Source: Malacoraja senta
Lineage: Eukaryota
Assembly: GCA_038087875.1 (NCBI GenBank)
Contig: CM075990.1
Coordinates: 4,900,001-4,964,000 of the forward strand
DNA: 64,000 bases
Direction of reading: 5' to 3'
Positions 1 through 45,310 of this stretch are shown here, piece after piece. How positions within the stretch are numbered: the stretch's first letter is position 1; the number at the start of each line of letters is the position of its first letter. The translations under genes were made by a program, and so were the position numbers. The notes beneath the pieces were generated by a model. That model had not been told where the DNA came from. It worked only from the letters and a program-made list of their open reading frames with translations, and made no database searches.

Positions 1-59
1 CGCTCCATAGGTGCTGCCTCACCCGCTGAGTTTCTCCAGCACTTTTGTCTGTTTTCACT

Positions 60-1574: not shown

Positions 1575-2665
1575 AGGTAGGGAGGGATTGGACCAATAGG
1601 GTATGTTGAACAATCCCTGTTCCAGGCGTACACTGGCCCTCTCCCCGAACTCTACCTCCGCTACATTGATGACTGCATCGGTGCTGCCTCCTGCACCCAT
1701 GCAGAACTCACTGACTTCATCAACTTCACCACTAATTTCCATCCTGCACTCAAATTCACTTGGACCATCTTCGACATCTCCCTACCGTTTCTGAATCTCA
1801 CCGTCTCCATCACAGGAGGCAGACTATTGACCGACATCTACTACAAACCTACTGACTCCCATAGCTATCTAGACTACACTACTTCCCACCCTGTTTCCTG
1901 TAAAGTCCTCTATTCCCAATTCCTCCATCTACACCGCATCTGCGCCCAGGATGAGGTTTTCCATACTAGATCATCGGAGATGTCCTCATTCTTTAGGAAA
2001 TGGGGGTTCCCCCCTCTCATTATAGATGAGGCTCTCACTAGGGTCTCCTCGATAACCCGCAGCTCTGCTCTTGCTCCCCCTCCCCCCATTCGCAACAAGG
2101 ACAGAGTCCTTGCCGTCGCATACAGCATATAATCCTCCAACACTTTGGCCACCTCCAACGGGATCCCACTACTAGCCACATCTTCCCATCTCCACCCCTT
2201 TCTACTTTCCACAGAGACCGTTCCCTTCGCAACTCCCTGGTCAACTCATCCCTTCCCACCCAAACCACCCCCTCCCCAGGTACAGTCCCCTGCAACCGCA
2301 GGAGATGCAACACCTGTCCCTTTACCTCCCCCCTTGACTCCATCCAAGGACCCCAGTAGTCTTTTCAGGTGAGGCAGAGGTTCACTTGCACCTCCTCTAA
2401 CCTCATCTACTGTATCCGCTGTTCCAGGTGTCAACTCCTATACATCGGCGAGACCAAGCGCAGGCTCGGCGATTATTTCGTTGAATACCTTCGCTCAGCC
2501 CACCTTAACCTACCTGATCTCCCGGTTGCTCAACAGTTTAACTCCCCCTCCCATTCCCACACTGACCTTTCTGTCCTGGGCCTCCTCCTATGTCAGAGTG
2601 AGGCCCAGCGCAAATTGCAGGAATAGCACCTCATATTTCGCTTGGGTAGCTTACACCCCAGTCTC
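1575..2665 (+). mobile_element. Penelope-like retroelement fragment (RT C-terminus + GIY-YIG endonuclease)
   Basis: LRYIDD RT motif, TDIYYKPTDSHSYLDY, and CTSSNLIYCIRCSRCQLLYIGETKRRL (GIY-YIG); frameshifted. Confidence 0.92.
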
Positions 2666-3166
2666 TATGTAAATATAGTTAAATGTTTAAAAGAAAACAT
2701 ATATAAAAAAACCAAAAAGAAAAAAGAGAAAAAAGGAAAAAACAAAACCCCCCTAAACTAGACAAAAAAGAAGCAAAACAGAATCTGGGCTGCAAAGAAT
2801 TTCAACAATTTAAGTCCCTTTTTTTGTAAACCAGAATCTGCAGTTCCTTGCTTCTACTGTGAATCTTCCTTCTTTATTAGAAGCTTGTCTCTGACCATTA
2901 AGATGCTGCGCTCACTAAGCACAGTATTATTGCAAGAGGGGACTATGCCAGCTTCAATATCAGTGTAGCACTCTTCCCCATTTGCCAACTCGCATGTCTG
3001 CACTCCCAGGGCAATAGGTGGCTGGCTTATCTTCAACACATGGGGCCCATTATCCTCAGTAAGGGACTCTTTCCTCTTCACTGTCTTCACCATAGGAGAA
3101 GTGCTGATACAGTTGGGGCATTGGATCCTTTCGATGGATGCTGTATTCCCCCCGAGCACGGTCCTG

Positions 3167-5487: not shown

Positions 5488-5804
5488 GGGACAATAAACA
5501 AAACAAAACTAGAATAATTTACTAAACAAAATGGCAGTTTATTTTAGTCCTTCAATCAGTTGTCCTATGTTCAGAACACTAAGTGATCCCTTGTCTTAAC
5601 ATGAACCACCCCAATCAAATTCATCTTCCTGCATACTCCCTATAACACTTTTATCAAGGTGTGAGTATATTGCGACTCGTTGTACTTGCCTCTGCATGTA
5701 CTATTCACCAAGAGGAACCAAATGAGAAGAGGTGAGCAGAGACACTGGCCAACAGTACACATGTGAAATATTATATATATAATATGCAATAGATGCTTAG
5801 TGCT

Positions 5805-6012
5805 AGACACAATATGCTGGAGTAACTCATAACTGGGTGGTGGGTGGTGCAGTGGCGATACTGCCCACTCCCCTGACATCAGTCTGAAGAAGGGTCTCAA
5901 CCCGAAACGTCACCCACTCCTTCTTTCCAGAGACGCTGCCTGTCCCGCTGAGTTACTCCAGCATTTTGTGCCTATCTTCGATTTAAGCAGCATCTGCAGT
6001 TCTTTCCTACAC
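5805..6012. mobile_element. Short Penelope-derived element (GCTGGAGTAACTCAGCGGG subfamily) with a 12-bp TSD
   Basis: ATGCTTAGTGCT on both flanks; contains CTGAAGAAGGGTCTCAACCCGAAACGTC. Many related copies occur in the window (e.g. about 380-515, 16658-16742, 17570-17690, 38930-39315, 43572-44005, 45890-46660). Confidence 0.72.
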
Positions 6013-6121
6013 ATGCTTAGTGCTGATCTCTGAAGAGGAATTTTCTCTCGCCTGTCCTGAATCTTTTACCTGCCAGTTATTCTTTCCGCTTGCATCTCTA
6101 ACTCTTTCTTTCTGGCCTTAG

Positions 6122-6179: not shown

Positions 6180-7889
6180 GTAAGAAAAGATGGAAAATCA
6201 CATTCGTTCGGTATGTTGAAGTCAAAGGCTTTTCATTAATGGTTATCAGCTGGCAAATGCAATGTCTTTTGGCACTTAGATTTAAATTCATCGCAGATGG
6301 AAAAGAATGAATGGTATCCCACACTGGAAACTAGGAATCATACAAATTGGCGCAGCGGTAGAGTTGCTGCCTTACAGCACCAGAGACCCGGGTTCGATCC
6401 TTACTACAGGCGCTGTCTTTGCGGAGTTTGCACATTCTCCCTGTGACCAGGTGGGTTTTCTCCGGGTGCTCCAGTTTCCTCCCACACTCCAAAGACGTGC
6501 AGGTTTGTAGGTTAATTGGCTTCGTAAAATGATAAATTGTACTAAACCAAACCAATCATCCATTCACCCTATGGATCCAACAAATTCAAAACTGGTGACG
6601 TTTTATTCAGGTAAAAACTCAGCCAGGTACTTGCAGCGTGAACTGGAACCAACTCTTTTGCGTGATTCAGGGACAGCAGTGGTCACCAGAAGTGATGGAT
6701 CCATTTATTTGACACAGCACATTCCCAACCAATGCTGCTACTGAGTATTAGATGATGATATCAAGGGATGAGTTGCAAGGTGAATTAGAACCACTGATCA
6801 GCCCTGATCTAACTGAATGGCAGAGCAAGCTTGAAGGGCTGAATGGCCTATTTCCACCTTAAACAAGGACAATTTGGAATCAGTCAACATTCAATTATTT
6901 ATTTTAGTTTAGAGATGTAGCGTTGGAACAGGCCCTTCAGCCCACGCCAACCAATAATAACCCCTACACTCATTCTATCCTGCACAGAATCCAATTAACC
7001 TACAAACCTGTACGTCTTTGGAATGTGGGAGGAAACCGGAGCACCCGGTGAAACACTCACACAGTCACAGGGAGAACGTACAAACTCCCTACAGACAGCA
7101 TCCGTGGTCAGGATCGAACCCGGGTCTCTGGTGCTGTTAGGCAATACCACTGCACCACTGTGCCGACATGTCAGCCATTGACTGTGGATGTTATTTCTAT
7201 AAAAGTCATCAATGAGCGCGTTCAATCAGCTGATTCTTTGGAGCATTGCAAGTTGGGAGGAAGGAATAGTTGACATTTCGGGTCGAGACCTTGCATCAAG
7301 ACACTATTAACAATTTGCCCCCCCCCCCCACGCCACCCCACCCACAGACGCTGAATCCCTGAATCCCTCTGAATCCCGACAGCAGCTTTTCGTGCAGCAA
7401 TATTCAACAGAAATTTGCACAAAATCAAGGCGTTAGGCCTTTTCAGCATTAAAGCATGGAAAGCTGGCACTGTTCCACACTCTATTCTATATCAGCCATC
7501 CAGAACAAGCTATTCCACTCATCACCTGCACTCCCACAGTCTCCATATGGGCTGTCCCTTGAACACATCCTCAGCACCTGCCCCGTCCCACACACAATTA
7601 CACCCCAAATGGGACCTCTAACCCAGGGTGAGTCATGTCCCTGTCTTGGTGGTTCTGCTACATCTGAAGTGGCCTGAGGTTTAAGCCAAGGCAAACATTC
7701 CCATCTCTCCCGCGAGGTTACGTCACACATCAAGAGCAGCCCTTTCTGCGCAGCCAAATAAAATAATCAAAAAAGCCAGCAGTCAAAAACTAATTCATCA
7801 TTAAACTGAAAAATCCGAACAAAGGCAAAACGTGCCTATTTGGATTCAGCCGACACTGGAAAAGAATAAAATACCACTCAGAATTATGT

Positions 7890-8008
7890 TTAAGAAGGAA
7901 CTGCAGATGCTGGAATATCTAAGGTAGACAAAAATGCTGGAGGAACTCAGCGGGTGAGTTTCTCAGCTGTGAGTTTCACCCGCTGAGTTTCTCCAGCATT
8001 TTTGTCTA
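7890..8008. mobile_element. Short Penelope-derived fold-back element with a 14-bp target duplication
   Basis: Same 5' end (TTAAGAAGGAACTGCAGATGCTGGA) with shorter arms; ACTCAGAATTATGT at 7876-7889 and 8009-8022. Confidence 0.78.
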
Positions 8009-8916
8009 ACTCAGAATTATGTAGCACTTTGGTTGTTTAAGGTCTCTCCAGAATAAGGGCAACATATTTCCCCCCCTATGCAGTGGGAACATTGAAGTGA
8101 CTGGAAGGCACTTGAAGAGCAATTATATCTATGCATCAGTAAATCTGCTTTCTAACTTCAGTCATCAGGGGTACAGGAGATTTAAGCACAGAGTTTGAAT
8201 GCGACCAGCACTCCCCTCATCTCCTTCAAGCCCCCTTCTCCCTGATACATGCTGGTGGCAAGAGGCAGAGCGGGAACAAATAACAGCAAGAAGCCATTAA
8301 AGCACTGTTCATTCATTCACACTGTACCCTCTGTTGTCAAGCTGGAACGGGTAGAGTGTGGATTTACGAGGATGTTGCCAGGATAGAGGGTCTGAGCTAT
8401 AGGGAGAGGTTGAGTAGGTTGGGATTCTATTCCTTGGAGCGCAAGAGGATGAGGGGTGATCTTATAGAGGTGTATAAAAGCATGAGAGGAATAGATCGGG
8501 TAGAAGCACAGTCTCTTGTCCAGAGTAGGGGAATCGAGGACCAGAGGACATAGGGATTTTAACACAAAATCTACCAGCAGAATAGATCAGTGGTGCAGCT
8601 GGTAGAGCCACTGCCTCCTTGCACCAGTGACCCAGGTTCAATCCTGACCTGGGCTGCTGCCTGTTAGCCTGTTCTCCCTCCGACTGCGTGGGCTTCCTAT
8701 GGAAGCTCCAGGTTTATTCCTCCAGGGCTGCCTGGTGGCGCAGCGGTAGAGTTGCTGCCTTACAGCACCAGAGACCCGGGTTCGATCCTGACTATGGGTG
8801 CTGTCTGTACGGAGTTTGTACTACTCCCTGTGGCCACGTGGGTTTTCTCCGGGTGCTCCGGTTTCCTCCCACACTCTAAAGACATACAGGTTTGTAGGTT
8901 AATTGGCTTCTGTGAA

Positions 8917-17600: not shown

Positions 17601-19643
17601 TTATTCCTTTTCTCTAGTGATGCTGCCTGACCCGCTGAGTTACTCCAGCACTTTGTGTCTATCTTTGGTGTAAACCAGCATCTGCAGTTTCTTCCTTCTT
17701 CTTCTTCTTTCGTGTGGCGTGCACAGCCTAAAGTTGTTGGACAACTTATTCTATTTGATCTTCCGTTTGTGCACGTCGAGTTGATTGCATTAGTCGAAAC
17801 AGGGCGGACCACGTGAAGGTTGCAATCTTCCACCCCAGTTTCTTCCTAATACCTTTGGACAAGCACCTGACCTCAGAACCTTAAAGGATTAGACTCCGCA
17901 ATGCCCCATGAAATAAATGTACATCTCAGCACAACACGGAGTCACATAAACATGGGAGGCGCTGAGTTTGATGGTTACTCAGCAGAAGATAGTGGAGTTG
18001 TCCTCAGTGACTTTGGTAAGAGATGGGAAACTGAGCAAAGATTCTTTCTCACAATTGCCACTCAATGGCTCGTGCAGGGTTACAAGCAGTGTTTCCACTC
18101 TGAAGAAAATTACCCAAAATTCTAGCAATTTCTAGCAATAGGGCACCGTGTATGGAACAGCTCTTCCAACGACCAAGAAATTGCATATACACTGATTTGC
18201 CCGGGTTTCAAGGGTTGCATCAGATTTGAGAGATGCACAAGGCTTCAATCCCATAGATTGAACATCATTGTTATAGCGTAGAAACAAAAGAACTCTTGAT
18301 GCTGGTTTACAAAGAAGGATACAAAGTGCTGGAGTAACTGGGTGGCACAGTGTTGCTGGATTGGCTGCACAGTGGTGCAGCGTAAAGTTGCTGCCTTACA
18401 GCGCCAGAGATCCGTGTTCGATCCTGACCATGGGTGCTGTCTGTGTGGACTCTGTATGTTCTCCCTGTGACCACATTGGTTTTCTCTGGGTGCGCTGGTT
18501 TCCTCCCACATTCCAAAGATGTGCAGGTTTGTAGGTGAATTGCAAATTGTCTGTAAATTGTCCCTTGTGTGTATCATAGAACTAGTGTGTCGGTGATCGC
18601 TGGTCGGCACGGACTCGGTGGGCCAAAGGGCCTGTTTCCACCCTGTATCTCTAAAACTAACTAAAGGGTTAGGCAGCATCTCTGGAGAACATGGATAAGT
18701 AAAGAGGGGTCTGAAGAAGGATCCCAACCTGAAACGCCACCTATCCATGTTCTCCAAAGATGCTGCCTGACCTGCTGAGTTACTCTGGAACTTTGTGCCC
18801 ACCATTGTTATAATATCTCGCAGATGTTTTGTATGTGAAGTGAGATATTAATAATAAAATATTATAATCGTGTGCAAAGGCAATTATGACCAATAATGCT
18901 TTGTATGTCACCCCAGATGATATTGTTCTGTATAATAAATGATCACACTAGATCAAATTAGTCTCGTCTCACACCACAAGTCTGGTTTGTTGATCCAACA
19001 AGGTCCAGGATTACATCCAAAGACTGAAGGTTATTCTCCACCTGATTTCTCACACCTTCAGCCCATGGTGAATGGCTTTTCATTGTTTGTGTCTTATGAA
19101 CCAAACCCTCTGACCTCCCATAAACAAGGTGACATTTTGCTCTCAGAGAGGACGATAGATAGTCTGATGAACGATGATTTTCTACAGGGAGCCTTGGAAC
19201 ATAGATGAACAGCTATTACTAGCTCACAGCAAGATTTTTCAGTGATCTGGATAATTCCATGTTATGTTTACGGCTGGAGTTACAGCTATTCTGTGAAAAG
19301 AGGAAAGGTTGTGTGGTCATGGTGGCTTTGCATTTTTAATTACTAACAAAGGGATTATCTGATTAAACCACTATCCCTCATATGGAAAACATCAGCATTA
19401 AAAAGTCCTATCCTAAAACCCTGCCAATAATTGTCCAAGATCTGTCTGTGAACTGGCAGTGCCATGGAGCAGTTGAGAAGTTTGGTAGGTATTACCTTGG
19501 TTCAAATTATTGTCCTCTGTCAGATAGTTATGTTATGTTATTCAAGTTGAAGCTTAATGTAAGGAACCGCCAATGCAATGTGGGGTTAGAGTCCATAGTC
19601 ACACAGTAAGGAAACAGGTGCTTTGGCATATCACACCTACATT

Positions 19644-21375: not shown

Positions 21376-22797
21376 AAACAGGAGGTTTGGATTGTACATG
21401 GGTCCCGGGGGTTGTGAGACAGCAGTGTTGACTGGTGCACCCACAGTGGCCCCACAGATGGATAACGTAGATAATTAGAGCCCACATTTCATAGTTTATT
21501 TTGTGGGGCGTTGACACAGACCTGAGCATAAACTGTTAAGATGAAGCACATTGAACATTCAAGCACAAGAGCGAGTCATTTATAGGTGTATTGCAAAGTT
21601 TATTTTCATGTACTGGAAGCAAAAATAAAATCATTACACATAATATGCAATAGCCTGAAGTTCACAAAATTATGGCCTTTGAGAATAGGTGCCAGGACCT
21701 GAATTCTTTGCTCTAAGGCTGACCTGACTCAATAGTTTCAACCCAGTTGGGGCATTCGTTGAGCCAGCTCAGGGAAGTTGCAGCTCTATTCATAGCCTGA
21801 CCTGGTGGAAGAGCCAACTGATCAGATTGCAGGATATCCCCCAACTCTTGCTACTTCCCAAGGTGTTGCAGAAAGATCCCATGAAAGAGTGGACACATCC
21901 TGACTGACTAAGGTAGAATTACCGGAGCTTAAGTCCATTCAAAGACTTGTCCTTAATCAAACAAATTGAAGTAATTCAGTGTCATTGATCATCACAGACC
22001 CTGTCTGGCACACAAGTACATCTTCCTTTACCCACATGGCATAAATGTTGCATTCCCTCACATTTTGAAAGGTTCAGAGATGATCCGTTTGTGGTAATTA
22101 AAGTTATAAAGTAATTTGATAGGGCGAGGATTTGTTTCATCCAGTGTCACACCTAAACAAAAGATCCAGACTTTTCAACTGTAGGGACAAGGAGAATCGT
22201 TTTCCACGCACAGAGCAATGGAAATCTGGAATTCCTTTCCATGAGAGAGAAGAATGGAAATCAACTGGACTTTTCAAATCTGGGGCTGATGGATTTTTGT
22301 TGGCTAAGGATCTCCGGAGAAACACCAAAGGCAGATGGATGGAACTGAGGCACAGGCTTACTGTAGAACAGGGCTGAATGGCCTCCAGTGATTCCCAGTG
22401 TAAGAACAGCAGTCGATTAAGCATAAGATGTATTCAAGAGAGAGTTAGATTACAGCTCTTAGGGCTAACAAAATCCAGAGATATGGGGAGAAAGCAGGAA
22501 CGGGATACTGATTTTAGATGATCAGCCATGATTATATTGAATGGTTGGTGCTGGCTCGAAGGGCCGAATGGCCTACTCCTGCACTTACTTTCTACGTTTC
22601 TATTATTCAATTAAAACGGATGACTGATGTTATGACTTGAAAACGCAAGCTGGTATAAATAATGAACCAATATGTGCAGAACTCCACCAGAAATTATTGG
22701 GTCACACCATGCCCGTTAATTTAAAGTCTCCAATTTCCCTGAAAATGGAGTATCTTTCAGCCCAATGTTGCCGGAGACGACGAGTGTTGTTGGGTCT

Positions 22798-22915
22798 TCA
22801 CTTTTCCTTCTGCTCTGGTTTGTACGACAACAGGTGCTGCAGGGAGGTGAACCCAAACAGAAATGTTTGAAGCGCCCACTTGGTTCGAGTGCATGAGTTT
22901 GTGATTCCTTTATCA
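22798..22915 (-). CDS. TMEM254: TMEM254 terminal coding exon
   Basis: Acceptor ctctttctctttgcccctcacag. Encodes (S)DKGITNSCTRTKWALQTFLFGFTSLQHLLSYKPEQKEK*, with the KGIT and W..QTF.FG motifs. The assembled protein is 122 aa. Confidence 0.92.
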
Positions 22916-23163
22916 CTGTGAGGGGCAAAGAGAAAGAGGGGTTAACATTAACGAGGACAGTGAGATCATTGCACCCGTATCCAGACTCAGTCTTGCCAAA
23001 AAACATTGATTCAGATTTGTGGTCATTGCAATAGTTTTTACTTTGGTAATAACAGTTGGTTGGATCTTGGTTACATGAAGTTTCAGTGTCGATAGTTGCC
23101 AACTTATCCATGGGATCCTAAAAGATCTAGCAATTCCCTTTGGCCAGAAGGACTTTCAAAGTT

Positions 23164-23334
23164 TTTAAGAAGGAACTGCAGATGCTGGAAAATCGAAGGT
23201 AGACAAAAATGCTGGAGAAACTCAGCGGGTGAGGCAGCATCTATGGAGCGAAGGAAATAGGCAACGTTTCGGCCTGAAACGTTGCCTATTTCCTTCGCTC
23301 CATAGATGCTGCCTCACCCGCTGAGTTTCTCCAG
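23164..23334. mobile_element. Short Penelope-derived fold-back element with a 15-bp target duplication
   Basis: Perfect inverted arms centred on TTTCGGCCTGAAA; AGGACTTTCAAAGTT at 23149-23163 and 23333-23347. Confidence 0.8.
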
Positions 23335-23850
23335 GACTTTCAAAGTTATTTTGATTGGAAAAATCTGATATTTCAAACTATCATTTGCACCAGGTTTTGG
23401 TAAAATATTAGATGTTGATCTTGCCTTGCTCAGTCCGAACATGCGTCTTCGAAAGGAGACTCCTTAAGTCCACTGGAACAACCTTCCATTTGCTGAGCAT
23501 GCATTCTCCTTCAATGAGCCAGGCAACTAAACCCTGACTTGTATTATTGACCCCTCGTAAAAATTGGTAATTGTGACAGGATGTAGCATGCCGCAAATAT
23601 TACTAATAAACAAACATACTGCACAGAGGCCTTACCTTTTGCTTTAAGGTGCCTCTCTTTCTAAACTGCTGCACTGCAACACCGAGGATCTGCTAGGGTG
23701 GAAAAGCTTCCACTTGCCGATGAGGGACTTGCCCTGCTTGCTCTCTAACCTGTAGGTAGCACTCTTGTTTCTGAATATCAAGGCTGGGGATATCCCATCC
23801 CACTACAAAATGTAGGCACATATACCAGTGGAACACAAACTGTTGGAGGC

Positions 23851-24206
23851 TAGATTGTTAAGGGTTCGGACACGCTAGAGGCAGGAAACATGTTCCCGAT
23901 GTTGGGGGAGTCCAGAACCAGGGGCCACAATTTCAGAATAAGGAGTAAGCCATTTAGAACGGAGACGAGGAAACACTTTTTCTCACAGAGAGTGGTGAGT
24001 CTGTGGAATTCTCTGTGGAATTCTCGGTGGGTTCTCTGGATGCTTTCAAGAGAGAGCTAGATAGGGCTCTTAAAAATAGGGGATATGGGGAGAAGGCAGG
24101 AACGGAGTACTGATTGGGGATGATCAGCCATGATCACATTGAATGGCGGTGCTGGCTCGAAGGGCCGAATGGCCTACTCCTGCACCTATTGTCTATTGTC
24201 TATTGT
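23851..24206 (+). mobile_element. CR1 3' fragment
   Basis: CR1 3' UTR with an (ATTGTCT)n tail. Confidence 0.88.
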
Positions 24207-25671
24207 TAGCTCTTTCAGAAAAGATTTCTGCTCTCCATAGTGCATGTCAGGGCATTATTTTAAATACAAGCAGGGGAAGTCTGTTTCATGCCTTGTTTCA
24301 TTTATTTTCGTCACCTGTACCGAGGTATCGTGAAAGGCTTTTTGTTGTGTTAACCTGTCAGCAAAAAAAGACTATTCATGATTACAATCAAGCCGCCCAC
24401 AGTGCACAGATACAACGCTTAGAGCAAGTTAACGTCGAATAAAGTCCAGTTAAAGGTAGTACGAAAGTCTCCAATGAGGTAGATTGGAGGCCAGGACCTC
24501 CCACATCTGGCAAGAGGACGGTTCAGTTGCCTGATTACAGCTGGGAAGAGACGATCCCTGAATCTGGAGGAATGCGTTTTCAAACTTCTATACCTCTGGC
24601 CTGATGAGAGAGGGGAGAAGAGGGAGAGACTGGGGGGAGGAGTGCCCTTGATTTTGCTGGTGGCCTGACCGAGGCAGGTGTCACACCAAAGCAAAAGAGG
24701 GACAAGGAGAATCATTTTCCACACAAGAGCATTGGCCAACAGAATCTCTCAAACTGATTACCTGGGTGGCACATTGCTGTTTGAAGGAGGTTCCTGTGCA
24801 TATTTGGACTGCCATTTTCTCATCAGTCCTGTTACACTTTGAAAATATTTCATTTGGCACGAGAATTTTGAAATTGATGGTTTAATTCTAAAAGCCATTT
24901 ATTTCACTGTTAGCAATGAACAAATCCCACTTCAATACAGGTTACCCGATGGGATGGAGAGTTGGGAGGAAGCCCACATTTGAACTACGTGCTACGGGAA
25001 TACCCCTAGCACTGTTTATTATGGTTATAGGGGGAAGGTTACTTGTATTTGTGGCCAGGTTTGAAACATTGCTTTTGTTAAACACCACACAGAGTGGGCT
25101 GTTCCAAATGAGCAGAACTGAGACCATTACGGTGGTAATTATCTTCAAATATTTACTTTGACACAGTTTTAGGCTGGGAGAAATGCCAACAAATTGTGAT
25201 CCACAGATTTATTTTCCTCTCTGCAGACCAGTGTTGCACAACAAGAGCTCACTTGGGGAAACTAATTCATCCATGACGTTCAGGAAAAAAAATTCTTGGA
25301 AGAGGCTTCTTGTTGGAAATTCATCCAAGCAATATATTCCTCCCATAGGAACAGAGTGCTGGAGACTGCAGGGGCCTATTCTGGATCACTTGCTGGATAT
25401 CAGCTCAGGCAGGTCTATTTCAGTAATTAACTAGCTGAAGCCTGGGATCCTGCCTCAAGCTCTCCACCAGAGAACAGGGTGGATAAGATGTGCCAGCTGG
25501 GATCGTGCTCCCCTTCTCTCATCACATCTTGGAAGAGTCAAAATGGAGGCAGTCTTGATACCAGAATGGATGTTCTCCCAGAGGGTTCATTTCGAATAAG
25601 TCAGTTATGGAGCATGGCCACAGGCCCTTCAGCCAAACTCATCCTTGCCCACCAAGGTCCCTATCTTAGCT

Positions 25672-25856
25672 TTTAAGAAGGAACTGGAGATGCTGGAAAA
25701 TCGAAGGTAGACAAAAGTGCTGGAGAAACTCAGCGGGTGCAGCAGCATCTATGGAGCAAAGAAAATAGGCAATGTTTCGGGCTGAAACGTTGCCTATTTC
25801 CTTCGCTCCATAGATGCTGCTGCACCCGCTGAGTTTCTCCTGCACTTTTGTCTACC
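25672..25856. mobile_element. Short Penelope-derived fold-back element with a 14-bp target duplication
   Basis: Same family; TCCCTATCTTAGCT at 25658-25671 and 25857-25870. Confidence 0.8.
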
Positions 25857-26814
25857 TCCCTATCTTAGCTGGTCCCCTTTGCCTGTGTTTGGGCCATATC
25901 CCTCTAAAGGCCCATTTTTAGTTATGTGACCAAAAAGATGAAAAGGAATACATTTCTTCTAATTCTCAATAGCATTACAGGCTTATTGTTTTGTACTGCA
26001 CGTATGATTCATATGTTTTTTCGGTTTAAATGTTTGTTTAGGGCAAGAGGTCAAACACGACTGGTCACGTGTGTGACATTTTTGTTCACTTCCCAAAGAG
26101 TGGGCCTAAACCTTTCACGTCCATACCTTGACTAAATGCATTTTAAACAATGTAATTGTACCCGCCTGTAATGGCGCAAGCAGATTGAGGGTAATGGAGA
26201 AAGAACACTTCAAGTTAAAAACACCACATTTATGAAACATCAAAACAGCAATGAAACAAGTCCGGGTCAGCTCAGAGTCAAGGTTGTGAACCATCTGGTT
26301 CAGTTTTCAGACTCGGTTGCCAGGGAGACGCATGGGATTTGTGACTTGTGAATACAACTGGAAGCGGGGGGCCAGGGACAATGGCTTTTGTTTCCCTATA
26401 TTTAATTACACAAAATCCCATCAGTACCCAGTCTTATGTGGAATTCCTGACAAATTACTGATTCTCTGTTCTAATGGCCAAAACACACTGCCAACAATTC
26501 AATAAAAAATACATAATCTCATTGCAGAAAGCAAACATATGAACAAGTATCCTGTTGGCAAGCTACAAACTTCAGTAGAGTAAACTGCAGTAAACAACGA
26601 ACAAGAGATGATGAACTTACAGAATGTGAAGGATTCCTTCAGTGATTTATCAGAGTGCGGGGCATTCATTCTGAGACCATGGGCCTCCGACCTCCACCAC
26701 TTGACTAATTCTGCTCTCCTCCAACTCTGTTCCCCTCCTGGGCTATTCAATCATGAAAGGAGCTGCAAAGCCATGGGCACAGCATGCGTTGTGAATAGGA
26801 TGTTGGCCACCCCA

Positions 26815-30067: not shown

Positions 30068-30568
30068 AAAGGTCCACTGGCTGCAAATCATTCCACTGAA
30101 GGTTTCAATAAAATGAAAAGGCATGTGGATTATTCCTGAACTTATATATTTTTTCATTTCTCTGCATTACATTGTACGGTTGGGCAGGTGGGCTGAGTAA
30201 CTGGTGGGTTAATGCAGTTTAATACAGAGATGCACGGGGTGATGCATTTTGGGAAATTAAAGCTGGGCAGGACTGAAACAGTGAATGGCAGGGCTCTGGG
30301 GAGTGTTGTAGAGCAGAGGGATCTAGGAGTACAGGAACTGTTGCTTGAAAGTAGCACCACAGGTAGATAGGGTGGTCAAGGAGGCTTTCGGCACATTGGC
30401 CTTCATCTGTTAGAATACTGAGTACAGAAATTCAGAGATGAACACAAAAAGCTGGAGTAACTCTGGCTCAGACAGCACCTCTGGAGAAAAGGAATCGGTG
30501 ATGTTTTGGATCGAGACCCTTCTTAAGACTGAGAGTCAGGGGAAAGGGAAACAAGAGATATAGACGGT

Positions 30569-31020
30569 GATATATCAAGAACTTCACTGGCTTCCCATTT
30601 CCCACCGGATCACCTACAAAATCCTGGTCCTCACCTACAAAGCCCTCAACAACCTGGCCCCCCCTTATCTCACGGACCTCCTCTCCCCCTACCAACCCTC
30701 ACGGTCCCTCAGATCCACATCAGCTGGTCTCCTCTCCACTCCGAAATCAAACCTCTGCACTTTTGGAGGCAGAGCCTTCTCCAGGGCAGCTCCCAGGCTC
30801 TGGAATTCCCTCCCACAACCGGTCCGAAATTCTGAGTCCCTCACCATCTTCCAGTCCGGCCTCAAGACCCATCTCTTCACCTCTGCATACCCTTAGTCCC
30901 ACGTTCCCCTCCCCTCTGTCTTACTGCTCTATTTTGTTTTGTTTATTCCTGACTCTCAATTGTAAAGTCCTGAAAAGCGCTATATAAATAAAATCTATTA
31001 TTATTATTATTATTATTATA
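30569..31020 (+). mobile_element. L2-clade LINE 3' fragment
   Basis: Encodes LHWLPISHRITYKILVLTYKAL...APPYL...RSLRS...AFS.AAPRLWNSLP; tail AAGCGCTATATAAATAAA-(TAT)n. Confidence 0.92.
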
Positions 31021-31490
31021 TAGAGAGATATAGAACAAATGAATTAAAGAAATGCCAAAAAGTACTGTACCTAACCTAAAGGGAACACGCCATTGTTAGC
31101 TGTGGCCTCGGTGAAAATGACTCAACAAGACGACTTTCAAGCTTGTACAACTTGGGTGGGGGAGGGATGGAGAGAGAGGCTATGCAAGGGTTACTAGAAG
31201 TTAGAGAAATCAAAATTCATACCCCTGGGTTGTAAGCTACCCAAGCGAAATATGAGGTGCTGTTCTTACAATTTGTGTCTGGCCTTACTGACAATGGAGG
31301 CAGCCCAGGACAGAAAGATCAGTGTGGGAATGGGAAGGGGAATTAAAGTGTTTGGCAACCAGGAGATCAGGTAGGTCCAGGCGGACTGAGCGAAGGTGTT
31401 CAGTGAAACGGTCACCCAGTCTACGTTTGGTCTCGCTGTCGTACAAGAGTCCACACCTTGAACAATGGATACAGTAGATGAGGTTGAAAT
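31020..31490 (-). mobile_element. Penelope-like element 3' part (GIY-YIG remnant + terminal repeat), split from 30436-30568 by an L2 insertion
   Basis: Encodes NLIYCIHCSRCGLLY..ETKRRLGDRFTEHLRS; the terminal-repeat sequence continues on the other side of the L2. Confidence 0.8.
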
Positions 31491-32297: not shown

Positions 32298-32507
32298 CTC
32301 TATCCAGGCCTTTCACTATTCGGTAAGTTTGTCACATTGATTGTGAGAGTTTTACCGTATGCATATAGTTTAGTTAACTAGTTTAGTTTAGTTAACTAGT
32401 TTAGTTTAGTTAACTAGTTTAGTAAATTAAACTAAACTAAATGTATACGGTAAAGCTTCCACAATCAACGTGACTAACTTACCGAATCGTGAAAGGCCTG
32501 GATAGAG
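32298..32507. repeat. Long imperfect inverted repeat with a tandem TAGTTTAGTTAAC centre
   Basis: The CTCTATCCAGGCCTTTCAC... arm pairs with ...GTGAAAGGCCTGGATAGAG; the right arm continues as a CR1 3' fragment to about 32780. Confidence 0.9.
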
Positions 32508-33754: not shown

Positions 33755-33840
33755 AAATTCTAGCACTGTGGCCCATGCAATTTTCTCTCGCCTACTTTTC
33801 AATCAGCAGGCAAATCACAATAGAAATATTATTTAACTTA

Positions 33841-34408
33841 AGGGCCTGTCCCACGAGCAGGCGACTGCGTGCGGCTAGCGCGACCTAACGTGGTCGCTTG
33901 AGCCGTACGGCCTCCCGGGGCCGGTCCCACTTCGATCGGCGGAGGCGTATGGAGTTGTGCGGGGCTGGTCCCGACATCGCGCGGGGCTCCGAAAAACTGA
34001 CACTGTCCAAAAATTCCGAGCAACAACGGCCTGTCGGCCCGCAGCCGCATTGAGGCCGTACGTAGCGCCTCGACAGGCGTACACAGCGTCTTGACGTCGT
34101 ACGCAGCGTCTCGACGCCGTACGCAGTGTCTTGACGGCGTACGCCTAGGGCGTGGCGTTGCGCGATGACGTCACCGCCCGGCGTGCCGTTGCGTGAGGCC
34201 GTAACCGCCCGACACCGTGCGACGTCCAAATTCAGTCGGCCCGCCTCCCGCCCAGCTGATTGGTGAGTATGATGTCGGGACCAGCCCCGCACAACTCCAG
34301 ATGGCTCCGCAGTTGGAAGTGGGACCGGCCCCGCGAGGCCGTACGCCTCAAGCCACCACTTTTGGTCGCGCTAGACGCATGTAATCGCATGCTGGTGGGA
34401 CAGGCCCT
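33841..34408. mobile_element. PIF/Harbinger-type MITE
   Basis: TIR AGGGCCTGTCCCAC...GTGGGACAGGCCCT with a TTA duplication; CpG-rich interior with tandem GACGxCGTACGCAGCGTCT repeats. Confidence 0.85.
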
Positions 34409-35666
34409 TTAAACATTCATTTCCTCCACTTCTACAGGTGTAGGGAGCATATTGACTGGTTTGGCAACTCGAAGGCCCAGGAACGAAGAAGTGGTGAACA
34501 CTGCCAGTCAATCACAGGTACTGACCTCCCCACCAATGAAGGGATAAGAGACGTAGCTTCAAAAGGGCAGCAAGCAGACACTCACACCACCCTGGCTACA
34601 CCCTCATTTCACTCCTGCCATCGGGGATATAGGAGCCTGAAAACTAACGTTCAGGAGCAGCTTCTACCCTACAACTAGCAGGCTATTAAACATTACAACC
34701 TTCCAATATGCTCTAAACTACATAGCCCTGCAAGTATGAATTTCATTGTGCTGTTTCAGGACATACTGTACGACAATAGAACGCTCTTAACACTATTGTC
34801 TCTTGACGCTAGTTGCACTGCAACGAGTCTCCAGTGACCTAGTAGCACCACTCAAATTGACCACGTTGTGTAATTAGAAGGGCAAGGGCAGCAGGCGCAT
34901 TGGAAGCTCCTGGCCAAGTGACACCATTGTGGCTGAGCACATGCTGCCATTTCTTCACAGCCAGGGTCAGCAAAACTCTTCAACATCCTCACTAACAGCA
35001 CTTCTACTGGCACATTGACTGCAAATGGCTGCCTCGCCCCCATCTTGTCAAGGGCAGCAGAGAAAAGAGAGAGATGCTTACCTCACTGGCAAATCAGAAT
35101 TTCAGGGAATGCCGACCTTCAAAAATATTGGCAGCATAGAAGGGGCGACAGTGGCACATCATCTGAGATCAAAACACACCCCCACACGATGTGTGTGCTG
35201 TTCAGAACGTGACCATGTCTTAAGGCAATGTTCAGAACATCAATAGATAATATCAAGATTTATAAAATGGTTGTACATATTTAGATCCTCAGCAAAATAA
35301 CAAAAAAGGTGCTCGAATTTACAGAAATGAGGAAACTAGGGCACAGAATTGTTCAATGTTTCACCTCTTAAAGTCAACAGATCTAAGGTCAACAGATGTG
35401 ACCTTGAAGTTTCATGTTTGTCCATGTTAATTGTCATACAACATTTACAGATCCCAATGGATCTCTTGACGTGTTTAGGGTGCTATGCTAAGTGAAGCCC
35501 CTCCAATTTTACACAGCACAAATGGGGCAGACCAGTAAAACAGAACAGAACTGATAGACCGAGGTTTCAAGAGCCAAATGATTGGGGATTAGTGATGGAG
35601 GTGGGGAAAGGAAGGAGGAGGAGGAGCTGGAGAGGGTCAATGTCACAACACTCCAACATTACTTAC

Positions 35667-37206: not shown

Positions 37207-37784
37207 TCTCTCTCCAAACCTTTCCCATCCAACATACTTAACCTTCCCCACAGCCGACAATGGACCATTGTGGGCTCCACCTTTCCTTGATCATCGTTGC
37301 TGGCTTTTGGTCTGTCTTTTTGCGTATCTTTCATTAATTTGTTCTATGTACCTTTTCATATCTCTCGGTGCCCTCTCCCCTGACTCTCAGTCTGAAGAAG
37401 GATCTCAACCCAAAACATCACCCAGAGAGGCTGCCGGACCCGCTGAGTTACTCCAGCTTTTTGTGTCCATCTTCGATGTAAACCAGCATCTGCAATTTCT
37501 TCCTACATTCATATTAGTTTCACCCTGTGGGGTTTGCACAGCAGTGTTTCAGAGATTAATATAATTCCTCAAGATTTCACGATAACCTAGGAGATCCGGT
37601 TACCTTAGTGGAGACTGGCAAGGAGATCTGTAGTCACAAGGAAGACTGGGGAAGAATGAAGATGGATGACATATATGCAGAACTATCACCAGTCTGATTG
37701 TGGAAAGGCAAGATCAACAAGAGACCAGCCTCGTAAACGAGGGTTTAAGAAGGAACTGCAGATGCTGGAAAATCGAAGGTAGAC

Positions 37785-38258
37785 ATTCCTGGGATGTCAG
37801 GACTTTCATATGAAGAAAGACTGGATAGACTCAGCTTGTACTCGCTAGAATTTAGAAGATTGAGGGGGGATCTTATAGAAACTTACAAAATTCTTACGGG
37901 GTTGGACAGGCTAGATGCAGGAAGATTGTTCCCAATGTTGGGGAAGTCCAGGACAAGGGGTCACAGTTTAAGGATTAAGGGGAAATCCTTTAGGACCGAG
38001 ATGACAAAAACATTTTTCACACAGAGTGTGGTGAATCTCTGGAACTCTCGGCCACAGAAGGTAGTTGAGGCCATTTCATTGGCTATATTTAAGAGGGAGT
38101 TAGATGTGGCCCTTGTGGCTAAAGGGATCAGGGGGTATGGAGAGAAGGCAGGTACAGGATACTGAGTTGGATGATCAGCCATCATATTTAATGGTGATGC
38201 AGGCTCGAAGGGCCGAATGGCCTACTTCTGCACCTATTTTCTATGTTTCTATGTTTCT
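37785..38258 (+). mobile_element. CR1 3' fragment nested inside a short Penelope-derived palindromic element
   Basis: CR1 peptide and tail; the flanks GTAGAC|...|AAAAGTGCTGGAGAAAC rejoin into the short element. Confidence 0.9.
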
Positions 38259-39441
38259 AAAAGTGCTGGAGAAACTCAGCGGGTGCAGCAGCATCAATGG
38301 AGCGAAGGAAATAGGCAACGTTTCGGCCCAAAACGTTGCCTATTTCCTTCGCTCCATAGATGCTGCTGCACCCACTGAGTTTCTCCAGCACTTTTGTCTA
38401 CCCTCGTAAATGAGGGACTCAGAAACCCCTACATCAAGAAGCTGAGGAGGCAAGGCATTTGTTTAAGGCAGAGATGGTTCTGGGAGGAACCATGAGGACA
38501 TGAGGAGGGGGGGTGAAAGTCAAATTCAGTTTAGCCACGACCTAATGGAATGACAGAGCGAGCTCACGGCATTCCGTGCCACATATTTCTTATGTTCACT
38601 GCTCATTTATTTTGCAGAGGGGATCTACCAATTGCAACAGATCCTCCAAGTTTATCCCTAGACTGCCTTCTGATCTCCACCCAAGTTGAATGGAAAAAGG
38701 AATAATGGGAGGGTAGGGAGTGGAAATGTAGAAAGATAAATCCCAATTGCAAATCCTACCCACCAAAGTTCACTGTGGAAAAGGCATCAATCGCAGATTT
38801 AAGTGCAGGACTGATGTGACGGTGAAGCACACCATAGATGAATAGCCTTGCTCGTCTCTGTTAATGAATTGCTAGTTCGGGGAGGAATAACTAGTGGGGA
38901 AAGATACCGATGCAAATCTAGATTAGGTGTAGACACAAGGAACTGCAAATAGACACAAAGTTGTGAAGTAACTGAGCGGGTCAGGCAGTATCTCTAGAGT
39001 AAAAGGAGTGATAACTATACGGGTCGGGATCCTTCTTCAGACCCAAAGTGTCACCTATCCTTTTCCTCCAGAGATGCTGCCTGACCCACTGAGTTACTCC
39101 AGCACTTTGTGTGTCTATCTTTGGTATAAAACATCATCTGCAGTTCTTTGTTTCTCCAAAGAGGACAGATTGCTGGAGTAGCTCAGCAGGTCAGGTAGCA
39201 TCGCAGGCGAACATGGATAGACAACAATTCAGGTCGGGACCTTTCCTCCGACCTCTATCAATGTTCTCCTGAGATGCTGCCTAACCCACTGTGCTACTCC
39301 AGCACTCTATGCCTTCCTTAGATTGGGTGTGATGCCTCTGCTTTTACTAAAAAGAGAAAGGATCACAAATTAGCATTCTTGCAGCCTGCAGACTTGGATG
39401 GGATGTCTGCAAACTGGCTGATACATTCCAAACAGACTCAC

Positions 39442-39528: not shown

Positions 39529-40804
39529 TCTTTCCACTGGTTCCATACCGGCAGCTTGCATCTCAAACAACTACAACATTGTTCGGGAGTTGAAAGGTCA
39601 CTAGCTTCATTTCACTTCCTGTCTGATTTCTTAAAGGTAGACTGCCCGGTTAGACGAGAAACACAAATAACAGAACAGTTCAGTTACAAAGAAGGGTTAA
39701 TTAGCAAATCATAAAACCCTTTGCTCCATAGAATGAGATCTCTGAAGTAAGCCTAAAGTCATGAGTGTTTAAATGTCATTTGTACCAGAATCAGATTAAT
39801 TAAATTCTTACTTGCTGCAGCTTTACAAACCATCAACGCAATAACATTACACAAATAAATATACAATTATCAATAATACGTACAAAGAATTATCAGTAAT
39901 ACCATAATAGTGCATTATATAACTGACCTGCAAGTCTTGGGAGCAATGTGAGAGCTAGGATAAAGGCTGTCACAAGGCACGGATTATTTCAATGAATGAC
40001 TGCGTTTATTGTGAATTCTGTGGATCAATTGGCATTTGACCTAAATATTTCATTTCAGTAGGCATCTCGTGCCTTGATTGCATTTTAAATAAAATGTGGT
40101 AGAAATTCACAAATGCATTGCAGCTGGACAGAACATATTTGAACAAGAAATACATTTCTGTAGGAACTCAATGAATGTGAAGGGAATGAACAGATGGGAA
40201 TGGACTTTCAGTTTGCCCCCTTCCACCCATAACCCTTCCTGGTTTACATTTTCCTCCACTTATCTGACATCCTTTTGTCTGCATTACATTTCGATCCTTT
40301 GTCCACCCACCTGCCAAACAAACCCCCTCACCTGCATCCACCTATCACTTGTACCTCTGTGTCCCTACGCCCACACCTCAACATGTCCCGGGCCTGCCAT
40401 GGTGCAGTGTTCTTCTTCCATCGCCTCCACCTCCACGTCTTTTTCTACAGTAAGGAGTCCTCTTTGGAAGAAGGCTCTCTACCTAAATTGTCACTGATCC
40501 GTGTTCTCACGAGATGCTGCCTGACCTGCGAACTTACTCCAGCACTTTGTGTTCAATCAAATTATGCTGAGAGAATTAAAAGCTACAGCTGTCAACACAT
40601 TCTGTAGGAAGGAACTGCACATGCTGATAGATTCAGATTTCAGTCTAAAAAGGGGTATGAACCCAAAATGTCACTTATTCCTTCACTCCAGAGATGCTGC
40701 CTGTCCCGTTGAGTTACTCCAGCATTTTTTCTACCACATTCTGCACATTCATTGGTCATGAGGAAAAGAACTACCCACCGTTCATCCTATACCTGCTCTG
40801 AGTA

Positions 40805-41222: not shown

Positions 41223-41588
41223 GAGCATCAGGAAGATCAGGGGGCCTTGGAGGGGAGGATGCTCATCAAATTGCGGAGCATCCTGGACAACACAGCTCAC
41301 CCCCTCCATGACACACTGGTAAACCTGGGGAGTACCTTCAGCAACAGTGTTTAAGTCGCAAAATGAATTCAGTCTGAATTCAAGTGTTCAGTCTGAAGAA
41401 GGGTTTTGGCCCGAAACGTTGCCTATTTCCTTCGCTCCATAGATGCTGCTGCACCCGCTGAGTTTCTCCAGCACTTTTGTCTACCTTCAGCAACAGACTG
41501 GTTCCACCAAGGTGCAGTACAAAACGCCACAGGAGATCGTTCTTCCCTGTGGATATCCCCTTTCTGTCTTGGGGTAGACTGAGACTAA

Positions 41589-42124
41589 AGGGCCTGTCCC
41601 ATTTGGGCGACATTATCGGCGGCAGCCTGAAAAGAGGTTGTTGCGGCGTGACGCGGAGTGACGCATGTAATGACGCGTGGTGTCTCCTTGCTGCCGCTGG
41701 ATTTTGGAATGTTCAAAATCTTTCCGCGACACCTGCGTGTCTTATCATGTCGTGCGCCCTGTCGCACGCTGATGTAGCCTGTCCTGTGGGTGACGCCCGG
41801 TGACGCAAGGTCATGAGCTCGGCTAATTCATTTTGCGACAGCCTGCGTCATCATACGTCATCATGCGTCAACCTGTTGTCCTCAGATGTCGTAGACAGTG
41901 GCGTAGTCTGTAGTATCTTGCCGTATTGTGTCGCGGGTGGACGTATGATGACATCGGCTGTTGCTGTTTGGCGTCTGTGTGGTCACAGGATGTCGTAGGT
42001 GCTGTTGTATACTGTCGAATGTTGTCGCTGCTGATGTCCTGGAAATTGTGACCGGCTGATGTAGATTGTCGCAGTCACTGACGCCCGCAGTCGCTGAAAA
42101 AAATCACAAAGTGGGACAGGCCCT
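41589..42124. mobile_element. PIF/Harbinger-type MITE (same TIR, different interior)
   Basis: TAA|AGGGCCTGTCCCA...TGGGACAGGCCCT|TGA. Confidence 0.8.
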
Positions 42125-42420: not shown

Positions 42421-43570
42421 ATGGTGAATTTTTGCACTGTAAAAAATTGTAGAAGTCGGGGTAAGTGTGAGAGACATGTACCCAACTTCAGAATTCCAAA
42501 AGTGAAGCGAAATGAAGGTAAAGAGAAGCGAGAGCTGAAGGGATATCAACAGCTAAAGTGCTTGGCGAACATTGGCCGTGCAGATATCAAAATTGAAAAT
42601 ATTGGGAATTATCGCGTTTGCTCACTGCATTTCAACAACAGTAAAGGGCCTGTCCCAGGGGCATGCGATTCCATGCGGCAAGCGCGACCTAACCGGAAGC
42701 GGGGGCCACGCGGAGGTCGAGTGAGCCCCGTACAGGGCCGGTCCCACCAGCATGCGGCAAGCGCTACCAAACCGGAAGCGGGGGCCACGCAGAGGTCGAG
42801 TGACGTCAAGACGGTGCGTATGGCGTAGAGGCGGTGCGCACGGCCATCGATGCGGCGCGCACGGCCTCAATGCGGCTGCGGGGCGGCAGGCCGTTGCCGC
42901 GTGTAATTTTTTAACAGTGTCAGTTTTTCGGAGCCCTACGCGATGTCGGGACCAGCTCCGCACAACTCCATACGGCTCCGGCGATCGAAGTGGGACTGGC
43001 CCCGCGACCTCCGCGCGGCCCCCGCTTCCGGTTAGGTCGCGCTTGCCGCATGGAGTCGCATGCCCGTGGGACAGGCCCTTTAGGCATTATTTGTGTTTTG
43101 TCTTGATCCTTTGGTATCTAAAAAGTCTCAGAAGTGATAAATCTGTCTGTAAAATTTTTAAATCAGCCATGGTTCTGAAGTGGGTTTTTACATGCAAAAA
43201 GAAAACGCTTCTGAAGCTAAATTTATCTGTCTGTCTGTCACCTCCCGGCGGCCGTGAGCAAACGCAGTGAGCAAACGGCCAATGTTCGCCAAGCACTTTG
43301 GCTGTTGTTGTCCCTTCAGCTCTCGCTTCTATCTACCGTCATTTCTCCTCACTTTTGGAATTCTGAAGTACGATAAATGTCTCTCACGCATCCCGATTTC
43401 CATAATTATTTACAGCGCAAAAATTGACCATTTCGGCGGGTTTTAACGGGCCCGCTACGCTGGAAACAATGGTCAGTTATTACCTGCAGTTCATCGCGTG
43501 TACTCCAGTTGGCGTAGCGTGGCAACGGTACATGTCATGGGTCGTGACCCGACTGCCGTGCAACCTCCCT
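42421..43570. mobile_element. Non-autonomous palindromic DNA transposon with THAP-domain-coding arms (possibly ISL2EU/PHIS group)
   Basis: 42421-42640 encodes MVNFCTVKNC...FRIPK...RVCSLHF (C2CH THAP signature). A diverged inverted copy lies at 43276-43431. The right end reads GTGCAACCTCCCT|AT. Confidence 0.65.
42645..43079. mobile_element. PIF/Harbinger-type MITE nested in the THAP-coding palindromic element
   Basis: TAA|AGGGCCTGTCCCA...TGGGACAGGCCCT|TTA, with roughly 70-bp extended inverted arms. Confidence 0.85.
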
Positions 43571-44039
43571 ATAGGTGACGTTTCGGGTCGAGACCCTTCT
43601 TCAGACTGAGAGTCAGGGGACAGGGATATAGACGGCGATGTAGAGAGATGTAGAACAAATAAATGAAAGATATGCAAAAAAAGTAACAATGATAAAGGAA
43701 ACAGGCAATTGTTAACTGTGGGCGAGGTGAAAACAAGTACAATGAGGCTTAACAAAACGATGTTGAAGCTGGTCCAATGACTTGGGTGAGGATGGAATGG
43801 AAAGACGAAGGGTTACAGCTTACAGTTAACAACGGCATGTTTCCTTTATCATCGTTACTTTTTTGCATATATTTAATTCATTGTTCTATATCTCTCTACA
43901 TCACCGTCCTTTCTCTCTCATTTCCCTTGACTCTCGGTCCGAAGAAGGGTTTTGAGACGAAACGCCACTTATTCCTTTTCTCCACAGATGCTGCCTGTCC
44001 CGCTGTGTTCTTCAGGGCGGTCCCCTTCCGAGTGGGTGG

Positions 44040-45191
44040 AGCGGGCCTGACGTCACGTGACGCCACACGGCGGGCGGAGCGGGTCTGACGTGACGCCACA
44101 TGACGGGCGGAGCGGGTCTGACGTGCCGCCACACGGCGGGCGGAGCGGGTCTGACGTGACGCCACACGGCGGGCGGAGCGGGTGTGACGTGGCGCCACTC
44201 GGCGGGCTGAGCGGGTCTGAGGTGACGCCACACGGCGCGCGTAGCGGTGACGCCACACGGCTGGCGGAGCGGGTCTGACGTGACGCCACATGGCGGGCGG
44301 AGCGGGTCTGACGTGACGCCAGATGGCGGGCGGAGCGGGCCTGATGTGACGCCACTCGGCGGGCGGAACGGGTGTGACGTGGCGCCACTTGGTGGGTGGA
44401 GCTGGTCTGACGTGACGCCACACAGCGGGCTGAGCGGGTCTGAGGTGACGCCACACGGCGCGCGTAGCGGGTCTGACGTGACGCCACTCGGCGGGCGGAA
44501 CGGTGTGACGCGACGCCACACGGCGGGCGGAGCTGGTGTGAGGCGACGCCACACGGCGGGCGGAGCGGGTGTGAGGCGACGCCACACGGCGGGCGGAGCG
44601 GGTGTGAGGCGACGCCACACGGCGGGCGGAGCGGGTGTGAGGCGACGCCACACGGCGGGCGGAGCGGGTGTGAGGCGACGCCACAAGGCGGGCGGAGCGG
44701 GTGTGAGGCGACGCCACACGGCGGGCGGAGCGGGTGTGAGGCGACGCCACACGGCGGGCGGAGCGGGTGTGAGGCGACGCCACACGGCGGGCGGAGCGGG
44801 TGTGAGGCGACGCCACAAGGTGGGCGGAGCGGGTGTGAGGCGACGCCACACGGCGGGCGGAGCGGGTGTGAGGCGACGCCACACGGCGGGCGGAGCGGGT
44901 GTGAGGCGACGCCACACGGCGGGCGGAGCGGGTGTGAGGCGACGCCACACGGCGGGCGGAGCGGGTGTGAGGCGACGCCACACGGCGGGCGGAGCGGGTG
45001 TGAGGCGACGCCACACGGCGGGCGGAGCGGGTGTGAGGCGACGCCACAAGGCGGGCGGAGCGGGTGTGAGGCGACGCCACACGGCGGGCGGAGCGGGTGT
45101 GAGGCGACGCCACACGGCGGGCGGAGCGGGTGTGAGGCGACGCCACACGGCGGGCGGAGCGGGTGTGAGGCGACGCCACACGGCGGGCGGA
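44040..45191. repeat. GC-rich 33-bp minisatellite (about 34 units) at the presumed CUEDC2 promoter / CpG island
   Basis: Unit GAGGCGACGCCACACGGCGGGCGGAGCGGGTGT, nearly invariant over about 44506-45191 (about 20 copies). Diverged TCTGACGTGACGCC variants occupy 44045-44505. Confidence 0.97.
44048..44061. promoter_or_regulatory. Overlapping CRE (TGACGTCA) and extended E-box (GTCACGTGAC)
   Basis: Exact consensus matches at 44048-44055 and 44052-44061 at the edge of the CpG island; function not shown. Confidence 0.45.
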
Positions 45192-45310
45192 GCCACCGTT
45201 GACGCCGGGTGCTGCTGCTGCTGCTGCTGCTGTTGGCGGCAGCTCAGCCTGGGCACGATTTGTAAACGGCTGCAGTCAACTTGGTGGGAAGCCTCGCCGC
45301 GGGGAACGGT
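45192..45310 (+). other. CUEDC2: Probable non-coding first exon of CUEDC2 (start position uncertain)
   Basis: CpG-rich segment right after the GC-box minisatellite, ending at a gtaagt donor (45311). Contains (CTG)7. The next exon carries 5'UTR sequence before the ATG. Confidence 0.55.

Follow-up and report, generated by a model that had tools for sequence, protein, structure and literature searches.

The short fold-back insertions that recur through this stretch of skate DNA (the window hereafter, that is, the whole 64,000 nucleotides analysed) are likely to be minimal, dead-on-arrival insertions of an EN+ Penelope-like element, which retain only its pseudo-LTR (pLTR) end and were twin-primed and then joined. 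Their anatomy, their target duplications (TSDs), their two classes of end and the linkage between an older relative and a GIY-YIG piece are read directly from the window. As a set, these minimal Penelope insertions are real, abundant, old and of known architecture, and what still makes them of note is the evidence for two-ended priming at their junctions, drawn from a small number of copies.

A 24-nt start motif has five exact matches in the window, all on the forward strand (7892, 23167, 25675, 37747, and 63817), as against none in 100 shuffles. They lie where the earlier note on this DNA had placed five insertions with a common start (7890, 23164, 25672, 37744, and 63816). Its description of near-perfect fold-back hairpins, each complete copy having a direct repeat of its own, also holds, as the arms are 86-97% complementary within copies and copies 1-4 have TSDs of 14, 15, 14, and 15 bp. 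The five copies are laid out as follows:

7876-8022: copy 1 with its 14-bp TSDs; tail arm on the reverse strand, tail-less arm on the forward strand, without hammerhead sequence
7876-7889 and 8009-8022: TSD of copy 1, 14 bp, exact
~7959-7976: templated filler between the tail arm and the tail-less arm of copy 1
23149-23163: left TSD of copy 2, 15 bp
23164-23198 (-): unpaired Penelope "tail" of copy 2, the distal end, 35 nt
23199-23272 (-): long pLTR arm of copy 2, reaching the stem-II palindrome
23273-23332 (+): short pLTR arm of copy 2, which stops ~14 nt before the tail-less boundary
23333-23347: right TSD of copy 2, 15 bp, an exact match to the left one
25658-25870: copy 3, inside an older interspersed repeat; tail arm on the reverse strand, tail-less arm on the forward strand
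25658-25671 and 25857-25870: TSD of copy 3, 14 bp, exact
37729-38416: copy 4, split at ~37786-38258 by a LINE 3′ piece, which we take to be CR1-type
37729-37743 and 38402-38416: TSD of copy 4, 15 bp, one mismatch
63815-64000: copy 5, truncated by the window end, with its TSD outside; the forward-strand arm has the whole hammerhead core and the tail arm is without it

The elements themselves measure 119, 169, 185, 185, and at least 186 bp in copies 1-5. TSD lengths are uncertain by 1-2 nt, some bases being common to the TSD and the element end, and the short arm of copy 2 ends with 2 nt of microhomology to the target. When tandem arrays were left out, 4 of 3000 trials with random pairs of positions reached the TSD score; when they were kept, 49 of 3000 did. 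Both flanks of copy 3 align to a paralog of its host repeat at 52321-52450 (-), where they overlap on a single target-equivalent stretch, which suggests that the duplication arose upon the insertion of copy 3 there; in a second paralog, the left flank only is covered. As to whether the flanking repeats had been duplicated before insertion, then, the paralogous site holds the target once, and no orthologous empty site was found among the 15 joints listed of 1836 (contigs of four runs on 22620-26500). We do not claim palindromic targets (nine TSDs score 30 for palindromicity against 24.3 ± 2.9, p = 0.039, in a post hoc test with weak TSD candidates counted in), nor a bias of the five copies toward one orientation (p = 0.06), older copies lying in both.

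The insertions had been described as having a fixed start and a variable fold point. The start is indeed fixed; so, for the most part, is the second end, which had gone unnoticed and lies 35 nt inside the first. The long arm carries a tail of 35 unpaired nt; in copies 1, 3, and 4, as in those at 1-50, 41348, and 52997, no more than about 6 nt separate the end of the short arm from the inner edge of this tail. Further young and older copies in the window are:

1-50 (+): young-subfamily arm, truncated by the window start, with a tail-less end
5791-6024 (+): older two-armed copy in the opposite orientation, with a 12-bp exact TSD, a 26-nt tail-less arm and a full tail arm
18263-18812: older two-armed copy with a 13-bp TSD (one mismatch), a tail arm and a tail-less arm, split by another insertion
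38949-39153: older two-armed copy with a junction of the type seen in copy 5; a TSD was searched for and none found
40596-40743: older two-armed copy with a 9-bp TSD candidate, a 22-nt tail arm and a tail-less arm with hammerhead
41333-41496 (+): additional young-subfamily copy with a 15-bp TSD; the element, 41348-41481, has a 6-nt tail-like stub, a templated filler, a full hammerhead core and a tail-less end
52997-53090 (-): one-armed young-subfamily copy with a full hammerhead core and a tail-less end; no TSD found

Around 18 other clusters, the TSD search gave 12 bp or more in four cases, weak candidates of 8-11 bp in four and none in ten. When the 16 two-armed elements of the window were classed by eye, eight proved to combine a tail end with a tail-less one, and another four fit this layout roughly (copy 2 and those at 360, 38949, and 46236); copy 5 is cut off, and three misfit or are too eroded (39165, 43571, and 45888). 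The layout of the young copies matches the inverted-pLTR-plus-tail form of ordinary Penelope insertions, for which the available text of PMC8557442 gives an inverted 5′-truncated copy plus a tail of 30-40 bp at one end. Inverted pLTRs and short extensions are also among the PLE traits listed in the accessible part of a curation guide (PMC8969392). The pair at 43571-44009 is a larger head-to-head arrangement, with arms that run into the Penelope 3′ UTR and lie ~100 nt apart; neither of its ends has a tail, and no TSD was found.

Four window queries yielded 45 related segments after merging. In sense orientation, the unit consists of a hammerhead-like motif followed by ~100 nt up to the fixed end. 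Judged by its sequence, the repeat is the pLTR end of a Penelope-like element, because an older relative is collinear behind a GIY-YIG piece and because of the identity of the ORF at 1581-2661. The segments concerned are:

1581-2661 (+): broken Penelope-like ORF piece, with the RT C-terminal part and GIY-YIG
2825-2852 (+): tail remnant behind this ORF piece
30436-31485 (-): older Penelope 3′ end, with a broken GIY-YIG coding piece, 3′ UTR and hammerhead pLTR, collinear
~30572-31017: LINE piece interrupting the 3′ UTR of this older element

Over 263 nt, the GIY-YIG piece at 31485-30436 (-) and the end of the ORF at 1581-2661 are 82% identical. Of 1410 candidates, 68 are related to the upstream part of this ORF at E 1e-20 or better; RT (PF00078) is present in many of these and GIY-YIG (PF01541) in two. 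The best relative is a skate protein, 74% identical, and the Atlas returned the same RT and GIY-YIG families. Pfam placed GIY-YIG on one of four ORF pieces at E 0.012, below the cut-off, and gave no match for the other three. The ORF piece also carries a Cys cluster directly ahead of the GIY-YIG part. Penelope ORF pieces occur in public skate and ray proteins labelled as host enzymes or kinases (P0001, P0006, and P0009), and such entries are probably gene models that absorbed the element.

The collinear GIY-YIG piece, 3′ UTR and hammerhead pLTR at 31485-30436 (-) thus bear out the Penelope origin that had been proposed. The expected link to an autonomous Penelope terminal repeat could be made for this older relative, whose pLTR is 73-77% alike to the young subfamily, and not for the young subfamily itself, no ORF being joined to its own pLTR in the window. 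We found no account of the repeat family in cartilaginous fish in the literature searched; Repbase or Dfam may catalogue it.

Read by eye, whole hammerhead cores stand at 41390-41420, 53090-53060 (-), and 63923-63952, each having the two core boxes, one additional base following position 9, a stem II that begins with G10.1-C11.1, and a palindromic CG (15.2-16.2) replacing helix III. Compared with the features of the minimal Penelope type I hammerhead listed in the available part of PMC4209133, the pLTR bears a predicted minimal type I hammerhead motif whose core features are present on inspection. Helix I does not exceed 2 bp, and GUU is the triplet. Rfam gave no family at gathering score over the whole window, its sole match in 41300-41600 being irrelevant (E 2.4). 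Single-strand folding did not recover the hammerhead fold; three copies with the core had z-scores of 0.6, 0.8, and 0.5, and copy 5, in which the hairpin at the junction prevails, had -2.4. Copies 2-4 are without the CUGAAGA half of the ribozyme, and copy 1 is without the motif altogether. In copies 2-5, both arms extend past the predicted cleavage site and the folds lie 5′ of it, which argues that the template RNA was uncleaved; the Anolis Penelope element is reported in the accessible text of PMC11167929 to use uncleaved RNA in vitro. Window-wide, ~11 pLTR arms start within 6 nt of the hammerhead C3 position, the site of a 9-nt interrupted palindrome, and this cluster marks either a preferred point of 5′ truncation or the 5′ end of an RNA.

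Five junction types are found among the six young two-armed copies. In copies 2-4, the fold falls on an interrupted palindrome of 15 nt whose centre is hammerhead stem II. The earlier note had put the fold mostly at the hammerhead-like core; in these copies the centre lies 3 nt 5′ of GAAAC and not at the GAAACGTT core itself. On the antisense strand, the stem-II palindrome is predicted at -2.3 kcal/mol alone versus -16.2 as a homodimer. The fold-centre base on the forward strand is C, G, and C in copies 2, 3, and 4, and snap-back of the tail-primed strand alone would give G. The junctions of copy 5 and of the copy at 38949 are exactly as snap-back of one cDNA from the hammerhead 5′ edge would leave them, and they can be read as a cDNA that reached this edge, folded onto stem II and copied itself. 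The snapped-back cDNA would be the tail-less one at 38949 and the strand from the unseen end in copy 5; at some junctions, then, the self-priming suggested earlier reads well. Short templated fillers are present in copies 1, 41348, and 52997.

Where the arms are unequal, the tail-less arm reaches further 5′ in 7 of 9 pairs and the tail arm in 2 of 9, with copy 5 included by assumption (p = 0.18, not significant). Within copies 2-5, the arms show 7 differences in 228 positions and agree at three diagnostic columns, and copies 3 and 4 have both ends, the fold and variants in common. The loss of 18 nt from a copy 5 junction could have produced copy 3. Arm concordance could also have arisen by later gene conversion, and unequal arms by later deletion.

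The mechanism that we propose would begin with a GIY-YIG/RT protein making staggered cuts 14-15 bp apart. On uncleaved element RNA, reverse transcription would then be primed from each target 3′ end: from one end it would start at the distal site and yield the 35-nt tail, and from the other at the proximal site. Synthesis would stop early, often at the hammerhead hairpins, and the two cDNAs would be joined head to head via a short palindrome or microhomology, sometimes after one of them had snapped back and copied itself; gap filling would yield the TSD. The order of these events and the choice of the autonomous element's RNA as template are our reconstruction. The arm concordance and the junction data are in keeping with one source RNA on which priming took place twice, the products being joined afterwards, and a single fold-back from the fixed start would be insufficient alone, because some tail-less arms hold pLTR sequence that is absent from the tail arm. 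L1 5′ inversions arise by twin priming: cDNA synthesis starts from both ends of the target, and the two products are linked through microhomology. There, however, the two arms are non-overlapping parts of the RNA, whereas both skate arms copy the same pLTR stretch. Against the proposed mechanism stand the missing ORF link of the young subfamily in the window, the three of 16 two-armed elements that misfit, and the likeness of copies 3 and 4 in ends and fold, as expected from one hairpin master.

It is possible, and we suggest it tentatively, that Penelope elements routinely twin-prime on one RNA or source RNA pair, from a distal and a proximal start, with the tail-less cDNA often the longest and the one that snaps back. 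If true, a single model would cover the palindromic junction, the tail at one side only and the inverted arm. How Penelope elements form inverted arms and tails is called unresolved in the available part of PMC8557442. In the minimal inserts, which are very abundant, a stretch of up to 200 bp takes in the two ends, the junction and the TSD, and genome-wide counts of end classes and junctions could separate two-ended priming from simple self-priming computationally. We found no statement of the two-ended priming model in the open-access literature; the supplements of PMC11167929 and PMC8557442 may bear on insertion structures.

A close biochemical likeness is to Poseidon of Anolis carolinensis (PAc). 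As far as the available text of PMC11167929 goes, its protein cuts and extends both strands, uses uncleaved RNA, is a predicted dimer and starts reverse transcription at two adjacent sites, between which the Penelope tail is located. The same text describes neither second-strand joining nor inverted products, and the start site is equal between strands in vitro, so the rule of one tail per insert is not predicted by that work. The AT-rich targeting of PAc is weakly echoed in the skate, where TSDs are 60% AT versus 55% for the window. Inverted EN+ Penelope insertions, as covered in the accessible parts of PMC8557442 and PMC3846280, are alike in their head-to-head inverted pLTR, one-end tail, variable TSDs, self-priming-type palindromic junctions and minimal pLTR hammerhead, and the tail of 35 nt compares with 30-40 bp in PMC8557442. 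Palindromes at head-to-head junctions are interpreted as self-priming in PMC3846280. The skate inserts differ in being cut down to the pLTR only (119-186 bp), in TSDs of 14-15 bp versus 8-10 bp in the rotifer examples of PMC3846280, and in their high density of 45 segments in 64 kb.

Other templates or other kinds of element have to be weighed against this reading. The same integration chemistry may have acted on a short non-coding RNA of the pLTR only, a retrozyme- or SINE-like monomer mobilised in trans, but we regard this as rather unlikely. On the 5′ side of the hammerhead core, young copies extend for about 5 nt at most, many older ones start there too, and non-autonomous pLTR-derived retrozymes exist in vertebrates, including one cartilaginous fish, according to the available part of 10.64898/2026.07.22.740005; yet older members run into the 3′ UTR and ORF, the commonest loose end among those listed extends upstream of the core, and the window yielded no tandem array of the unit. 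The non-LTR retrozymes of that report resemble the skate repeats as non-coding, pLTR-related type I hammerhead repeats in vertebrates. They are described there as head-to-tail tandem units, each with a complete hammerhead, whereas the skate copies are single head-to-head inserts whose hammerhead is mostly truncated. We rejected a non-LTR retrozyme array, with no tandem unit array in the window and copies 1-4 without a complete hammerhead core.

A preformed hairpin of tail and two arms that copies itself as a unit, the non-autonomous hairpin system envisaged in the earlier note, would explain the shared palindrome fold of copies 2-4 and the likeness of copies 3 and 4 in both ends and variants. 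It is nevertheless improbable, as the fold-centre base varies (C, G, C), copies 1, 5, and 41348 combine different junctions with the same outer ends, older subfamilies with the same ends also have other junctions, and copies 1-4 have no complete ribozyme. With the published Penelope layout matched and the template apparently uncleaved, a separate ribozyme-linked system of this kind is not upheld. That the insertions are short, non-coding and very abundant, with near-perfect inverted arms, might suggest a MITE or fold-back DNA transposon, which we consider very improbable: the inverted repeat is not terminal, given the 35-nt unpaired tail, the TSDs of 14-15 bp have no common sequence, and sizes (119-186 bp) and centres vary. 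A MITE identity was ruled out by the homology to the Penelope pLTR, barring a matching transposase with these ends, and the target-primed retrotransposition with long TSDs that the earlier note had suggested is supported. Skate-type Penelope end stubs are ordinary as a family and could be misfiled as MITEs.

Contigs of four runs (4 of the 24 listed) were compared over 22620-26500, which covers two of the five copies (copies 2 and 3). The flank contigs of organisms B and C differ by ~4.5-5.5% of letters. At copy 2, they cross the TSD and run 22-27 nt into the element (C on both sides, B on the right side); at copy 3, those of B enter by 22-27 nt on both sides and those of C by 11 nt on the left. 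These entries fall short of the 31 letters of our bridging rule, and contigs of the same organism stop likewise. Copies 2 and 3 appear to be occupied in two related organisms that are ~5% diverged, and for this reason they would be old; copies common to related species are usable as phylogenetic markers.

A LINE-tail joint exactly at 23164 is found in 11, 8, 17, and 15 contigs of the four runs, which supports a genome-wide fixed start. In the joint from 24196 to 23164, a CR1-type microsatellite tail meets the element start directly (8-17 contigs, all four runs), and one of the two, the CR1-type element or the pLTR element, may favour the other as a target. The only loose end listed within the element, at 23266, occurs in 431, 249, and 775 contigs of three runs (it is not listed in the fourth) and continues into the full, unfolded hammerhead core, which indicates that unfolded pLTR forms are common, at 82% likeness. 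Summed contig depth over the element is ~10^5 times that of the flanks, a measure of abundance and not of copy number. Pattern scans gave no matches in metagenome contigs, viral contigs and prokaryote genomes; a single pattern match in a bacterial contig (L001) has flanks that look unrelated and was taken as chance.

Several other features of the window lie outside the pLTR family. A head-to-head inverted duplication at 32298-32507, with 101-nt arms (83%) and an 18-bp tandem at its centre, is attached to a CR1-type piece and is unrelated to the pLTR repeats. At 33840-34409 and 42642-43082 lie two GC-rich elements that end in long inverted arms, of 139 and 78 nt; they have in common a 16-nt end motif that also occurs at 10517 and ~41586, and are probably a true MITE family. 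Presumably, the frame at 42343 is THAP-like and the ORF2 fragments at 49904-51392 (-) are L1/Tx1-type. Among CR1 pieces at 60443-61330 (-) lies a stop-free frame of 295 aa, which to us looks like a Tc1/mariner transposase. Finally, a 33-bp minisatellite of 34.7 copies with 91% matches occupies 44059-45193 and is open in several frames.
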